From a virus (Duplodnaviria; Heunggongvirae; Uroviricota; Caudoviricetes), in IMG/VR virus record IMGVR_UViG_2579779105_000001: a stretch of 64,000 bases of DNA; one strand, written 5' to 3'. Position numbers and translations under genes: made by a program. Below are positions 48,033 to 53,237 of the stretch, piece after piece. The stretch's first letter is position 1, and each line of letters opens with the position of its first letter. The notes below the pieces were generated by a model. It ran no database searches and was not told the origin of the DNA. It was given only the letters and a program-made list of their open reading frames with translations.

Positions 48033-48686
48033 ATGGAAAAGATCGCAATATTCAGCCTGACCACCAGCAAGCCTCAAATGCTCACTGCAATACTGAAAGA
48101 CGGTGCTCTCATTATTAACGAAGTAAAACCCCTTCCCGCGTCAGCATTGGAGCAAAAGCAAAAAATTCCTCCAGCTATAGCAGCCCTGCGGAAAAGCAAA
48201 TTTAAGGTACTGGTAGACGAAATTACGCCAACGATCTCCGCTGGCACCGGAGCAAGCCAGGTGACTCTCAAGACCCGTCATGCCGATGGCAGAGCAGCAA
48301 TCATCGTCGGGATGGAAAGATACAGAGAGTTAAAACTCCAGAAGCTATTATCCCTGCCGCAAAATAACAAAGGTGCTTTCGAAATCCCTGACTCCATCGT
48401 TGACACCGAATACAACGGTAACGGAGAAGAAGTCTACCGGGTGAACTGGCAGGATATCAGGCCGGAGCATATTTTGATGATCCTGTGTTGCTACGCGACC
48501 GTATACCACAATGTAGCCAGTGCGGATTACGTAGAGCAGATGACCGGTACAGTCGAGAAAGAGCAAAAAACAGGCATACTCGCTTCGTTCCTGTCCATTA
48601 TTGGGCATGAAAAAGTTAAAGCAGGCACCTCCCAGCCAAAGGCACTGACTGGGAAAGAAGTTGATGAAGATACCGTGATACTTTGA
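48033..48686 (+). CDS. hypothetical protein
   Basis: Start placed at ATG 48033 (GGAGGAAGGACA SD); the track start at 47991 lies inside the hairpin. Confidence 0.45.
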   Translation: MEKIAIFSLTTSKPQMLTAILKDGALIINEVKPLPASALEQKQKIPPAIAALRKSKFKVLVDEITPTISAGTGASQVTLKTRHADGRAAIIVGMERYRELKLQKLLSLPQNNKGAFEIPDSIVDTEYNGNGEEVYRVNWQDIRPEHILMILCCYATVYHNVASADYVEQMTGTVEKEQKTGILASFLSIIGHEKVKAGTSQPKALTGKEVDEDTVIL

Positions 48687-49014
48687 TCACATTAGTAGCT
48701 TTGTTAACTCCCTCAATACCAGGTAGAAGAGTAACAAAAATATTGACGCCAGTATTTGCGTGGTCAATGAAGCGTTCATAAACAGATCAATTAGCATTAA
48801 TAATTCGAAGATAACATCCATGTCATTCACTCCGTTTAATTTTTAATCTAATGCCAGCAAATGAAGCTGGCCCCCGCATAAAGATTAATGAAAGTCACTT
48901 GTCACCAGTGAGGGGATTTATGAACCACATCCCCCTGAACTGGTGTCCTGTCTGTTTCTCGCATTTCACACCCTGCATACAGTTTCCCCCAGGTTATGAC
49001 TGAGAGGCTTTGTT

Positions 49015-49344
49015 ATGGGCTATAGCAGACTCGACGATAGGTACATTGAAGACGATATTTTTCGTGCGCTGTTTCACCAGGAAATGATTAAGCGGGTATC
49101 GGAGTATCACTCTGATAATTTCCAGTACACGATAAAGATTGATGAAGTATATCGTTCAGACCTTGCAGCCTACAGGGCGTATGGCAATGCAGATTTGCGC
49201 TGGGTATTCCGGGTGCTGGTGGGCCATGAGTCAGAAATGGAAGAAATGCCCGCCGGGACCACGTTAACTCTTCCTGATGTGGCATGGCTGAGGAACAAGA
49301 TCCGTGATTACGCGAGCGCGGAACCGGAGATAGAAAATGCCTGA
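49015..49344 (+). CDS. hypothetical protein
   Basis: 109 aa; overlaps the next gene by 8 nt. Confidence 0.4.
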   Translation: MGYSRLDDRYIEDDIFRALFHQEMIKRVSEYHSDNFQYTIKIDEVYRSDLAAYRAYGNADLRWVFRVLVGHESEMEEMPAGTTLTLPDVAWLRNKIRDYASAEPEIENA

Positions 49345-50530
49345 TTTCCTGAAAAAACAGGACGGGCGCTATATCACTGACGGCCTGTCCTCTAAGGACT
49401 TCACGCGTTTATTCGAGATTATCAGGAAAGAACAAACCCGTAAGCGCCGACAAGCTCACCGGACGCTGACGCCAGGTAGACTGAGGAACAAATCCGCCGA
49501 AGATATTCTCAAGTTAGGGAAGAAAAAAGGCGGCACGTTCTTCACGCGAGACGACCTGAAAGGTTTCGAAAAGCTACGGAGTAAAACGCGCGAAAAATAT
49601 GACAGCAAGACGGCTGGCATCACATACGCCCAGCTGGTGGCATCCAGCCAGGCAATCGATATTAAGCGTGCAAATAACGCCGTGGATGACGGATCTGGTA
49701 TCAAAAGAGCTACCCCCGTATCTCTTCGCCACAATGTGATTAATATCCGCGTAGAAGCATCGGATATATCCGTCCACCAGCACCATATCGTCCGGATACG
49801 CTTTGAAGAATGGGATCAGATGGTTGATGACATCGCAGAAGACGATAAATCAGCTCTCAAAATCACTAAATCACTGTGCGCCGGGCGAGTGTCTTTCGAT
49901 TGTGACTGTGGTCGTCATCAATACTGGTATCGTTACATCGCCACTGCGGGTAACTTTGCCCTGGCACCGCCAAAAGAATACGCCTATCCAAAAGTTCGCA
50001 ACCCGAACCTGCAAGGCGTCGCCTGTAAACACGTGATCCACTCAATGACGCGGTTACAGTCCGCCAGTTGGCAAATGAGTATTGCTCGTGCGCTACAAAA
50101 GGCTGCAACGCAAATTGCATTTGGTGACGATCGCCGCCGTACAACCAAACACTTCTCAAAAGAAGACGAGAAGGAGTTTAATCGCAATCGTAGCAGTAAA
50201 ACGAACGTTGAAGCCGCCAAACGCGAATGGAGACTCTATCAGAAGCGCCAGGCAGCTTTAAGTTCAAAACTGGCAAAGGACAACGGCAAGATCGACAAGC
50301 TACGTGACCAATTGACCAGGGCCAGAAAGTTGTCAGACGCACAGAAAAAACGGGCGGCTGCAAAAGAAGCGGCCTTGCAACGAGAGAAGCAGAAAAACAA
50401 GGAGCTTCAGCAACGCCTTGCCGATCAGTTCGCACTGAAGAAGCAGGCGTTCATTGATGCGCTTGTCATGGCAGGAACGTCACCTGAGCAAGCTGAAAAA
50501 ATGTTTATAGAGTACGTGAAAAAAGCATAA
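49337..50530 (+). CDS. SWIM zinc-finger protein with basic coiled-coil C-terminus
   Basis: CDCGRHQYWY ... CKH fits the SWIM CxCxnCxH pattern; Lys/Arg/Gln-rich C-terminal 130 aa. Confidence 0.45.
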   Translation: MPDFLKKQDGRYITDGLSSKDFTRLFEIIRKEQTRKRRQAHRTLTPGRLRNKSAEDILKLGKKKGGTFFTRDDLKGFEKLRSKTREKYDSKTAGITYAQLVASSQAIDIKRANNAVDDGSGIKRATPVSLRHNVINIRVEASDISVHQHHIVRIRFEEWDQMVDDIAEDDKSALKITKSLCAGRVSFDCDCGRHQYWYRYIATAGNFALAPPKEYAYPKVRNPNLQGVACKHVIHSMTRLQSASWQMSIARALQKAATQIAFGDDRRRTTKHFSKEDEKEFNRNRSSKTNVEAAKREWRLYQKRQAALSSKLAKDNGKIDKLRDQLTRARKLSDAQKKRAAAKEAALQREKQKNKELQQRLADQFALKKQAFIDALVMAGTSPEQAEKMFIEYVKKA

Positions 50531-50563
50531 ACCACACATAGCCTAGTAGTTTATGCTGGGCTT

Positions 50564-51292
50564 TCATTTTTTTGAAAGATCAATTCCAGTATTATCAAAT
50601 AAACTGGAAATATCAGACACCAATTTATTAAAATGCTTGTCATCATTATAGAATGATGTGCTTTTTATAGCGACTATAAAATCACATAAATCTTGCGGAG
50701 ATTCAATGCTAACACCCTTATTTTTATATAGTTCAATAATACTGCCAACATCAGTATGCAATAGTTTTATCGCACCACAAATTTCTCGCTGTTTCGTAGC
50801 TAGGTCATTAAGTTTATTTTCATTTTCATCTAATATTTGTTTTGAATATTTAGCGTCATTGGTTGCTTGATTTAACTTTGTTTTCTTTCTTTGCAATTCT
50901 ATTCTTTTATCATAATCAGCAACTTCATCTAAATATCTTATTTCAGTGTATAATTTACTTGTTAGCTTAGATATCGTCAGTGTGAGAATAGGAGCTAATA
51001 CAGATGCAAATACTCCATAAATAAATGGGATTACAACGTGACAAACCCACGGGGGTACAATCCAATTATCAAAGAACGGTACATTACCACCAACAAAAAC
51101 AATAGATAATGTATATAGGATGTCGTCCTTTGACTTTAATATAATTAAAATATCCTTCCAGTTAAGGATTAGAAAAGAAATGACAACATATGCAAAAACC
51201 TTGTTAAATATTTTATCTTTTATTATTTCAGAAAATGATTTTAGTTCTGTTTCATTTATAGACGGATTATCTTTAACTTTTTCTGACATCAT
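50564..51292 (-). CDS. membrane protein with cytoplasmic coiled coil, in an AT-rich island
   Basis: 242 aa; AGGA SD; several hydrophobic helices; visibly lower GC than its flanks. Confidence 0.5.
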   Translation of the reverse strand: MMSEKVKDNPSINETELKSFSEIIKDKIFNKVFAYVVISFLILNWKDILIILKSKDDILYTLSIVFVGGNVPFFDNWIVPPWVCHVVIPFIYGVFASVLAPILTLTISKLTSKLYTEIRYLDEVADYDKRIELQRKKTKLNQATNDAKYSKQILDENENKLNDLATKQREICGAIKLLHTDVGSIIELYKNKGVSIESPQDLCDFIVAIKSTSFYNDDKHFNKLVSDISSLFDNTGIDLSKK

Positions 51293-51313
51293 AGCTTATC
51301 CTGATTACTTTTA

Positions 51314-51514
51314 TTATGGATAGTTAAAAGATTCAACAGGTGATGGTGGCTGAATTGGGTAATGTTTCTTCTCGTACTCCTCAATGAGAAGACTCATAAC
51401 CTCAAAGAAATCACCTTCCGGAGTATTCATTTCCGGTTCGTTATCGAACATCGGTTCGACCGCACGCAGTGCGGCCTCATAATCTTGTTCTGTACGGATA
51501 GGTTTAATGTTCAT
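51314..51514 (-). CDS. small antitoxin-like helical protein
   Basis: 66 aa; PIRTEQDYEAAL ... TPEGDFFEVMSLLIEEYEKKHYPI resembles the N-terminal helical module of some antitoxin/XRE proteins; weak SD. Confidence 0.3.
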   Translation of the reverse strand: MNIKPIRTEQDYEAALRAVEPMFDNEPEMNTPEGDFFEVMSLLIEEYEKKHYPIQPPSPVESFNYP

Positions 51515-51527
51515 TAATTACAAAGGA

Positions 51528-51553
51528 AAGCCCACTTGCTAAGTGGGCTTTTT
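51528..51553. terminator. hairpin AAAGCCCACTT-GCTA-AGTGGGCTTT
   Basis: Immediately downstream of higA; strong T-run on the + strand, weaker T-rich tract on the minus strand. Confidence 0.4.
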
Positions 51554-51570
51554 GTATGTGTTTTACTATA

Positions 51571-51909
51571 TCAGGCTGCTTTTTTATTCATGTTCCGCTG
51601 AGAAATAAATTTTTCAGCAGTATTGATACGACTTAACTCTTCCTGAACGCGCATATCATTTTCGACTTCCCACAGATCTACTGCGGTCTGAAGATTAATC
51701 CAAAAATCTACAGAAGTATCGAATGCTTTTGCCAGGCGATATGCCATATCCATCGTTAGCTTACGATTATTATTAACAAGAGCACTTACGGTGTTACGAT
51801 GAACATGAAGTATTTCTGCTAACTCGTTGATCTTCAGCTCTAACGGCTCCAGGTATTCGTACAGCAGGATATCACCTACGGTCGTCGGTTTTCTGGTTGC
51901 CTGTTTCAT
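51571..51909 (-). CDS. higA: HigA antitoxin (XRE-family HTH)
   Basis: HTH segment ELAEILHVHRNTVSALVNNNRKLTMDMAYRLAKAF; located downstream of higB. Confidence 0.8.
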   Translation of the reverse strand: MKQATRKPTTVGDILLYEYLEPLELKINELAEILHVHRNTVSALVNNNRKLTMDMAYRLAKAFDTSVDFWINLQTAVDLWEVENDMRVQEELSRINTAEKFISQRNMNKKAA

Positions 51910-51980
51910 TTTTTTGCCCTTACTAGCGTGCGTATTAAGTGGACTCTGGTCAGAACCCGGTCCGTAACCGGGTATCTGTT

Positions 51981-52283
51981 TTAGTATTTGTGAGGGTCGA
52001 GATACAAGTCCTCGGCCTTTCCGTTAACCCACTTAAAAATTAACCTATATTGCTTATTCACCCTTACTGATGAATAGCCATTTAGCTTCCCTGACAGTTC
52101 CTCATACCGATTACCTGGTGGTGATCTTAAATCCTTACAGGTAGTTGCGGCATTGATAATGTCCAACTTCCGTGACAATGTCATATGAATATCAGGAGGT
52201 ATCTTTCTATGTGGTGTTGAAAATTCAAAAAAATCATCAAGCCACGCATCCCTGAAATCCTTTATGTTAATTTTTTTGGTCAT
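51981..52283 (-). CDS. higB: HigB toxin (RelE/ParE superfamily)
   Basis: 100 aa; C-terminal YRLIFKWVNGKAEDLYLDPHKY signature of HigB killer proteins. Confidence 0.8.
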   Translation of the reverse strand: MTKKINIKDFRDAWLDDFFEFSTPHRKIPPDIHMTLSRKLDIINAATTCKDLRSPPGNRYEELSGKLNGYSSVRVNKQYRLIFKWVNGKAEDLYLDPHKY

Positions 52284-52433
52284 TAGTCATTTGATCCTCC
52301 GTGATGATTACCGAATGCCATAACTATAGCGCACCGTTGCACTGTGCGCAAGTGCATTTTATGAATTCCCCCTCCTTCATCCAAAATCACAATCTCCCGA
52401 AAATCTTCCTTTCGATACCTGACAGATCGACCT

Positions 52434-53237
52434 TTGAGGATGCTTATGGGCCGTTTTGACGAATGGTTTGCTGACGATGCAAACCTGGCAAGTAAGGAGT
52501 CAGAACATGACAGCACGCAGAGAGAAACGCCAGCGCCGATTGAAGCGAATGCAGGAGGCGCGCCGGAACATGGCAATACCGGTTCGGATTCATTCAGCAT
52601 TCTGGAAGAGCAACCCGCCGCCAAAGCTGATAGCCATGATAATTTTGCTGATAGCAACGGTGGCCTTACTCCGGATGCTGGCGAATCAGATATAGCCATA
52701 CTTCCACCTTCCCTGGCTGGCAGAGAACCAACTCCACAGCTAAAAGCACGCTATAACGGGCATAAAGCCTTTAACGACCAAATCCGCGCAGACTGGATGC
52801 TGATTATTGAATCCAGCCCAGACGCGTTTCAGGCTCTCTTATATCGACCAGATGTTGGCACATATGGGGTAGTCAGCGACGAAACAGGAGAAGAGTCATT
52901 CACTGAACTGGATAACAACCAACGCGAACTGACTTACCAGGAACCTGAAATCGTTTATGTGCTGGATAACCCTGACGGACGTGACTCTTTCCATGCGATT
53001 GACGCAGACGGTGAGCAGGATGGCTTAACCGATGATGTTCTGATTCTGCGTATTGCAGCAAATAACGTCCCCGTCGGCTCAATTCTTGAATGGAATGAAG
53101 AGATGGTAAACGGCGTAGCCCGCCGCTGGTGGTACGTGCACCGTATTTTTAGCTACGGCACACAGCATGTTGGTTCGCTTTACTACTGCATACCTGCCAG
53201 GAATTTTGATACGACTCAAAACGGAGTGATCGAATGA
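52434..53237 (+). CDS. hypothetical acidic protein
   Basis: 267 aa; first gene of the operon ending with hrdC-dmt. Confidence 0.4.
   Translation: MRMLMGRFDEWFADDANLASKESEHDSTQRETPAPIEANAGGAPEHGNTGSDSFSILEEQPAAKADSHDNFADSNGGLTPDAGESDIAILPPSLAGREPTPQLKARYNGHKAFNDQIRADWMLIIESSPDAFQALLYRPDVGTYGVVSDETGEESFTELDNNQRELTYQEPEIVYVLDNPDGRDSFHAIDADGEQDGLTDDVLILRIAANNVPVGSILEWNEEMVNGVARRWWYVHRIFSYGTQHVGSLYYCIPARNFDTTQNGVIE

Follow-up and report, generated by a model that had tools for sequence, protein, structure and literature searches.

We analyzed a 64,000-nucleotide (nt) stretch of viral DNA (IMG/VR virus record IMGVR_UViG_2579779105_000001; referred to here as the window, with all positions numbered from its first letter), and we conclude with high confidence that four minus-strand genes lying between two of its phage tail genes form a mosaic, made up of an intact RelE-type higBA toxin-antitoxin (TA) pair, the decayed remains of an antitoxin gene of the Escherichia coli K-12 HigA type, and an independent membrane protein gene that is exchanged as alleles. 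These three contents are unrelated to each other. At slightly less than even odds, we favor the reading that the 242-amino-acid (aa) membrane protein is a lysogen-expressed, single-gene determinant of superinfection exclusion or abortive infection (Abi); when the anatomy of the locus and this function of the membrane protein are taken together, we put the probability of the account at roughly 0.5.

The four genes lie in an element related to phage D6, to which the region has 89.5% nucleotide identity. The region is present in 102 of 5,426 complete E. coli genomes, in every case on plasmids of ~90 kb, and the flanking plus-strand genes encode tail and baseplate components of a phage (PHROGs 1722, 1906, 1767, and 1269). 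These observations together identify the window, as judged by homology, as a D6-like phage-plasmid of the P1 family. The left border is the homologue of gene 25 (49337..50530, plus strand; phrog_1722, E = 5e-195; 56% identity to P1 gp25), and the right border is the homologue of gene 7 (52434..53237, plus strand; phrog_1906, E = 2e-116; annotated in D6 as "similar to P1 gene 7"). Since genes 25 and 7 of P1 itself are adjacent, with 3 bp between them, the four-gene cassette is an insertion in the tail operon of the D6 lineage, and its transcription runs against that operon. An earlier, sequence-only reading of this DNA had listed higB, higA, a hairpin, a 66-aa open reading frame (ORF), and a 242-aa ORF in that order on the minus strand, and all of these are present where it placed them. 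Its suggestion that the setting is typical of a defence island did not hold, as what the four genes fill is a variable cargo (moron) slot in the tail operon of a phage-plasmid and not a chromosomal defence island.

Alignment to D6 orf72 identifies the 66-aa ORF (51314..51514, minus strand) as a truncated K-12-type HigA antitoxin gene. The D6 counterpart encodes 119 aa. Residues 1 to 59 of the 66-aa ORF are identical to it, the two diverge at codon 60, and 7 divergent codons lead to a stop at codon 67. Full-length orf72 has an Xre-type helix-turn-helix (HTH; HTH_3) at residues 63 to 115, and its residues 6 to 112 match the PDB structures of HigA from E. coli and Shigella (5IFG and 5YCL; E = 8e-8). 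The 66-aa ORF, which has no Pfam match, has lost the whole HTH (DNA-binding) half. Its matches to the PADLOC profile PD-Lambda-2_B (positions 1 to 65 of 402, E = 2.5e-16) and to phrog_1373 (positions 1 to 63 of 166) both cover just the shared N-terminal HigA module. Thus, of the attributes of a K-12-type HigA gene, this ORF retains the N-terminal module and has neither the C-terminal HTH nor an adjacent toxin gene of family PF09907; the genes upstream of it are the RelE-type pair, and a tblastn search found no PF09907 HigB toxin anywhere in the window. The earlier description of the ORF as a small protein with an antitoxin-like N-terminal module was right about the module and wrong in taking a truncated gene for a complete protein.

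The PD-lambda-2 match was considered separately. PD-lambda-2 consists of a HigB-like component A, an Xre-peptidase fusion B of about 400 aa, and a P4-antitoxin-like component C (PMC9519451), and the N terminus of its B component is the same HigA-type module as that left in the 66-aa ORF. Membership of the 66-aa ORF in this system was rejected, as only positions 1 to 65 of the 402 of B are matched and there is neither a peptidase nor a C component.

Comparison with sister plasmids (loci are given by our L numbers) shows what the intact gene looks like. In L005, the slot holds only a gene for a 100-aa HigB toxin of family PF09907 and, 3 nt downstream, orf72, a canonical toxin-first pair that corresponds to the E. 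coli K-12/Shigella HigB-HigA system. In L006, an identical orf72 protein is encoded downstream of a RelE-type higBA pair instead. When these variants are aligned, homology begins at the orf72 start codon. The ATG is preceded by GGAG in L005, while the window and L006 have at this position the terminator hairpin of higA and CCTTTG. The copy in the window, which keeps only residues 1 to 59, is therefore, as read from these alignments, an ORF without a toxin, a ribosome-binding (Shine-Dalgarno) site, or an HTH. It is probably a pseudogene, and PGAP annotates it as one ("incomplete, missing C-terminus") in a plasmid with 99.4% identity. Gene order in the sister plasmids indicates that the true partner of orf72 is the upstream PF09907 HigB toxin and not the membrane gene. 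The RelE-type higBA pair thus took the place of the PF09907 HigB toxin gene, and the start codon of orf72 is the exact point of the junction; the HTH half of orf72 was lost later, on exchange of the downstream membrane gene. One recombination junction lies inside orf72, which explains the truncation.

The contents of the slot vary widely among related elements. Besides L005, with only the PF09907 HigB gene and orf72, there are loci with these two genes and a membrane gene (L004, L011, L013, and L033), a locus with RelE-type higBA and orf72 but without a membrane gene (L006), loci with RelE-type higBA, orf72, and a membrane gene (D6 and L007 to L010), and the window type, in which orf72 is truncated. 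In some D6-like plasmids, as in L034 (1869-2408; NZ_CP142794.1), the slot is occupied by a single unrelated minus-strand gene for a 179-aa "stationary phase growth adaptation protein." At least 8 allele classes of the membrane gene, with 34 to 67% aa identity to each other, are represented among ten D6-like loci, and the window allele is 58 to 60% identical to that of D6. Nine of these loci are of the E. coli/Salmonella type, and their gp25, gp26, and orf72 are 96 to 100% identical (with the exception of gp26 in L013, at 92%). Divergence is much greater all along the tenth, the Klebsiella-type locus L015 (gp25, 81%). The Klebsiella lineage has the same pattern, with HigA 97% identical beside a membrane protein that is ~33% identical.

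The membrane gene of the window was earlier noted to be AT-rich relative to its flanks, and this is confirmed: its GC content is 0.288 (0.206 at third codon positions, GC3), compared with 0.48 to 0.50 for the tail genes on either side and 0.479 for the window as a whole. The AT richness had been taken to point to recent acquisition. However, every allele of the membrane gene has a GC content of 29 to 35%, so low GC is a trait of the family and not a sign of recent arrival. What does survive of that proposal is acquisition itself, as the alignments indicate that the window allele arrived by a cassette exchange with its junction inside the antitoxin gene.

When 1.84 billion cluster representatives were scanned exhaustively with HMMER, only 44 relatives of the membrane protein were recovered. 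Those with a named source are all from Enterobacterales and are all annotated "hypothetical." (A profile search of genome contigs confirmed one locus and was uninformative, as confirmation relied on the divergent window protein.) Outside the D6 slot, homologues occur in at least 6 other contexts, and none has a HigB-like or HigA-like neighbor; an orf72-like neighbor is lacking in L018 to L025 and L028 to L030. One homologue lies in a P2-like prophage between ogr and tail gene D, one follows genes for an AAA_21 ATPase and a C5 methyltransferase, one is in an integrase island between a Ser/Thr kinase gene and the gene for a 1,589-aa SACS/AAA_11-12 helicase, one is in a lambdoid prophage beside the gene for a weakly HEPN-like protein, and one is on a chromosome, adjoining an M32 peptidase gene. 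On two unrelated contigs, a homologue lies directly downstream of a umuC-type (Pfam IMS) polymerase gene (L020, 4634-6591; L030, 724-2444). Both of these are distant homologues, and the adjacency is thus recurrent. Based on its presence or absence irrespective of which TA genes lie upstream, and on its standing alone in other elements, the 242-aa gene is autonomous.

This distribution bears on two proposals that would tie the membrane gene to its neighbors. The sequence-only reading had seen in the 66-aa and 242-aa proteins a small regulator with a membrane effector, that is, a two-gene regulator/antitoxin-effector module for Abi or exclusion. The two ORFs are indeed on the same strand, 21 nt apart, and the smaller has an antitoxin-type N-terminal module. 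However, the supposed regulator is an antitoxin stump that lacks HTH and Shine-Dalgarno sequence and is annotated as a pseudogene, its full-length form is paired, at a spacing of 3 nt, with the upstream toxin, and the two genes do not occur together consistently, since orf72 is found without the membrane gene in L005 and L006 and the membrane gene without an orf72-like neighbor in the other contexts described above. The proposed layout was therefore abandoned, and we regard a module of this kind as very improbable. In the single-gene reading that we favor, the membrane protein would not need the 66-aa ORF.

A second proposal, made by analogy with the third gene of PD-lambda-2, is that the membrane protein would be the third part of a tripartite HigB(PF09907)-HigA-membrane system that has decayed in the window. 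PD-lambda-2 does provide a precedent for HigBA-like pairs that depend on a third gene for defence (PMC9519451), the HigB-HigA-membrane order is common to E. coli-type and Klebsiella-type D6-like elements despite their divergence (HigB, 25%; HigA, 32%; membrane protein, 36%), and all three genes have been captured jointly on large Klebsiella IncFIB plasmids. However, the captured copy in L026 (4959-6683; Klebsiella pneumoniae IncFIB plasmid NZ_CP069846.1) is a HigB-HigA-membrane cassette lying between insertion sequence (IS) elements together with 52 bp of gene 7, from which it follows that this is a fragment of a Klebsiella-type D6 slot (compare L015) and not an independent association. In addition, L005 holds the TA pair alone, L006 and the window have no PF09907 toxin, homologues outside the slot are never accompanied by HigBA, and membrane alleles are exchanged while the adjoining HigA stays 96 to 100% identical. 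Of 148 PLSDB plasmid records that carry a family member, 71 have the window-type allele (≥95% aa identity), so that about half of the plasmids with the family have the window-type arrangement. A tripartite system is thus improbable, if less so than the two-gene module. The higBA pair and the ORFs were already annotated in D6 and its relatives and are not new; what is new is the recognition of the small ORF as a fossil antitoxin and of the membrane gene as autonomous and hypervariable in a fixed slot.

The 242-aa gene (50564..51292, minus strand) is an accessory gene with its own Shine-Dalgarno sequence (AGGA) 6 nt upstream of the ATG, and its product, a predicted inner-membrane protein, belongs to phrog_8191 (unknown function; E = 3e-122). 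The earlier reading had given this protein several transmembrane (TM) helices and a long cytoplasmic coiled coil. Only two hydrophobic segments, at residues ~31 to 52 (TM1) and ~82 to 108 (TM2), are consistent across the family. The coiled coil has moderate support, with a best heptad register of 0.61 against a background of 0.36. The predicted layout is a polar N terminus, TM1, a variable loop, TM2, a cytoplasmic coiled coil (~110 to 190), and a small helical C-terminal domain, with a probable N-in/C-in topology. An AlphaFold model built with 20 sequences has a global pLDDT of 60, and its only credible part is a single continuous helix from residue 81 to residue 190, at a pLDDT of 70 to 88; a model from 3 sequences (pLDDT, 50) was unusable. 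Conservation is highest at residues 21 to 60 and 81 to 100, which form the TM hairpin, and lowest in the coiled coil; the inter-TM loop, the coiled coil (here residues ~120 to 175), and parts of the C-terminal helical domain are strongly variable. Codon 84 specifies Cys in the window and Tyr in the three other window-type alleles examined, and the aligned D6 residue is also Tyr.

Low GC content and the lack of a known domain could be taken to mean that the 242-aa ORF arose by chance in AT-rich DNA and is not a functional gene. Conservation refutes this: full-length, intact ORFs occur in the divergent allele classes and in several genera, 12 columns are invariant across the 20 aligned sequences with the architecture kept, and 6 of these residues (S39, N44, L62, P89, G93, and P101) are also invariant in a more diverse alignment. 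Together with the good Shine-Dalgarno sequence and the existence of a PHROG family, this leaves a chance ORF hardly credible.

The argument for an exclusion or Abi function rests on the position of the gene in cargo slots of several temperate elements, on the defence-type neighbors it has in some contexts, on its combination of a conserved TM hairpin with variable regions, and on its extreme allele turnover. A prior in favor of such a role comes from how often uncharacterized genes in hotspots of prophages and satellites have proved protective: in P4 hotspots, 6 of 8 loci of unknown function picked at random gave protection against phages (PMC13586616). According to this reading, the 242-aa protein would be made in the lysogen and would act against incoming phages through superinfection exclusion or through abortive infection at the membrane; the conserved TM hairpin would be the working part, and the hypervariable loop, the coiled coil, and the C-terminal domain would set specificity.

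Known prophage superinfection-exclusion membrane proteins include P22 SieA and SieB, T4 Imm, HK97 gp15, and P1 Sim. Proteins of this kind are small inner-membrane proteins encoded by single cargo genes of temperate phages, are transcribed apart from the late operons, and are often AT-rich and variable. The 242-aa protein is likewise the product of a single, AT-rich, variable cargo gene. However, we detected no sequence or fold similarity to these proteins, and the 242-aa protein differs from them in its long cytoplasmic coiled coil and C-terminal domain. Another comparison is with the Abi effectors of PADLOC PDLC00702 ("Effector 2TM"), which, like the 242-aa family, combine a two-TM hairpin with a variable cytoplasmic region, a possible sensor. 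The Klebsiella allele P0011 has a weak match to this profile over the hairpin (E = 4e-4, 17.7 bits), but it is the only one of 20 family members to do so, the window protein has no match, and no partner cyclase or sensor gene is present. Matches of single members to LmuB, JetC, and PbeC involve the coiled coil and were discounted as effects of composition.

Several observations weigh against an exclusion or defence role. No homology or experimental result ties the 242-aa protein to any exclusion or defence protein. In a search limited to databases no newer than 2023, the window protein gave 0 matches at E ≤ 1 in PADLOC-DB v2.0.0, and neither it nor 20 relatives belong to a family in Pfam, NCBIfam, or PADLOC. 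Foldseek, run with the poor model (pLDDT, 60), returned 0 hits in PDB and nothing below an E value of 4 in BFVD; a profile search of PDB sequences gave coiled-coil noise only; and we found no paper citing the protein accessions or phrog_8191. In a promoter scan, sites were no more frequent than in shuffled sequence and none upstream of the 242-aa gene was convincing, from which it follows that expression in the lysogen would need read-through past the higA hairpin (51527-51553). Substitutions in the window-type allele cluster at residues 43 to 106 and about half are nonsynonymous, but the rough ratio of nonsynonymous to synonymous rates (dN/dS) is ~0.3, which gives no direct sign of positive selection. 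Some homologue contexts, such as the chromosomal one by the M32 peptidase gene, are not obviously related to defence. Finally, a family member is found on 46 Klebsiella plasmids in PLSDB, and many of these copies are cut by IS903B; the match in most listed Klebsiella records is confined to residues 18 to 173 of the membrane gene, beside IS903B.

The principal competing explanation is that the membrane gene is a moron with no role in defence, serving lysogenic conversion or host physiology, lysis or assembly, plasmid or prophage maintenance, or SOS mutagenesis. This would fit with the absence of similarity to any defence family, with the two homologues downstream of umuC-type polymerase genes and the one among chromosomal housekeeping-type genes, and with the ability of the slot to carry an unrelated stationary-phase adaptation gene. 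However, a housekeeping-like accessory function would not be expected to show extreme allelic replacement in near-identical backbones, the gene and the late tail operon are on opposite strands, and several homologue contexts are rich in defence-type genes. We consider this explanation unlikely, though it is the most serious of the alternatives.

The exclusion reading has a stronger form, which we hold more doubtfully than the exclusion reading itself. The 242-aa protein may be the first of an undescribed family of single-gene, membrane-anchored determinants acting against phages or phage-plasmids, the alleles of which would be "exclusion types": the hairpin would execute the block or damage the membrane, and the loop, coiled coil, and C-terminal domain would recognize different invaders. 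This would explain why otherwise identical D6-like phage-plasmids carry at least 8 alleles, and also why relatives occupy cargo slots in P2-like and lambdoid prophages and occur in integrase islands.

The remaining part of the mosaic is the RelE-type pair. The higB gene (51981..52283, minus strand) is intact and encodes a predicted RelE-like mRNA-interferase toxin of 100 aa that covers the full Pfam profile HigB-like_toxin (PF05015; E = 4.4e-35; 120.5 bits, with a cutoff of 27) and matches phrog_3066, "toxin of TA system" (E = 3.7e-37). This protein, WP_000162415.1, is identical across many D6-like plasmids. The cognate antitoxin gene, higA (51571..51909, minus strand; 112 aa), begins 71 nt past the higB stop, in the toxin-first (inverted) order, and its HTH product matches the NCBIfam equivalog TIGR02607 (antidote_HigA; E = 8e-30; 102.5 bits, with a cutoff of 47.7) and Pfam HTH_3 (E = 8e-11). 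The toxin model, the antitoxin model, and the gene order are therefore all those of RelE-type HigBA, and the pair is an unexceptional example of the Rts1/Proteus type (PF05015 plus TIGR02607). It is most likely an addiction module that stabilizes the plasmid prophage, and published work regards the RelE-type higBA of D6-like prophages as a system for post-segregational killing (PMC6799933).

Two sequence elements accompany this pair. A GC-rich, terminator-like hairpin with an 11- to 13-bp stem (51527..51553) immediately follows higA and lies 12 nt before the ATG of the 66-aa ORF. As part of the RelE-type higBA insert, it is kept in D6 and L006 and is missing from L005, the variant with the PF09907 toxin. 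In the 150-bp divergent gap between gene 7 and higB, a palindrome, TGCACT-N7-AGTGCA (52338..52356; listed as a hairpin in the scan), is a possible HigA operator, which would overlap a weak candidate promoter (TTGCGC-17 nt-TATAGT).

A terminator-like hairpin with a T-run (50540..50562, plus strand) follows gene 25 and abuts the 3' end of the 242-aa gene. Considering that genes 25 and 7 are contiguous in one P1 operon, insertion of the cassette may have divided the late operon, in which case a separate promoter would be needed for gene 7. Nucleotide differences among window-type plasmids amount to 2 to 3% in gene 25 but only 0 to 0.9% in gene 26 (49015-49336), which lies upstream and overlaps it; this suggests mosaic exchange inside gene 25, adjoining the cargo slot. 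A second variable slot is located in the gap between the mat homologue and gene 26 (48686-49015). In the window, a very hydrophobic 47-aa ORF lies at 48687-48830 (minus strand) and matches D6 orf77 (annotated as 44 aa). In L007, L032, and L033, the second slot holds a further RelE/ParE-HigA pair (93 and 93 aa), which the window does not have.

Phage-plasmids of the D6-like and P1-like kinds occur commonly in E. coli, Salmonella, and Klebsiella from clinical and livestock sources, and the functions carried in their cargo slots affect which phages and plasmids the host strains accept. Three layers that annotation had lumped together are now separated: a probably working addiction module, the fossil of the one it replaced, and an independent, hypervariable membrane gene. 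The natural allele series in isogenic backbones makes the exclusion hypothesis testable. If the membrane protein is not an exclusion or defence determinant, its gene is merely an unannotated moron. If it is, it would add a compact family, not described before, to a known kind of prophage cargo and would provide a model for allele-specific exclusion among phage-plasmids.

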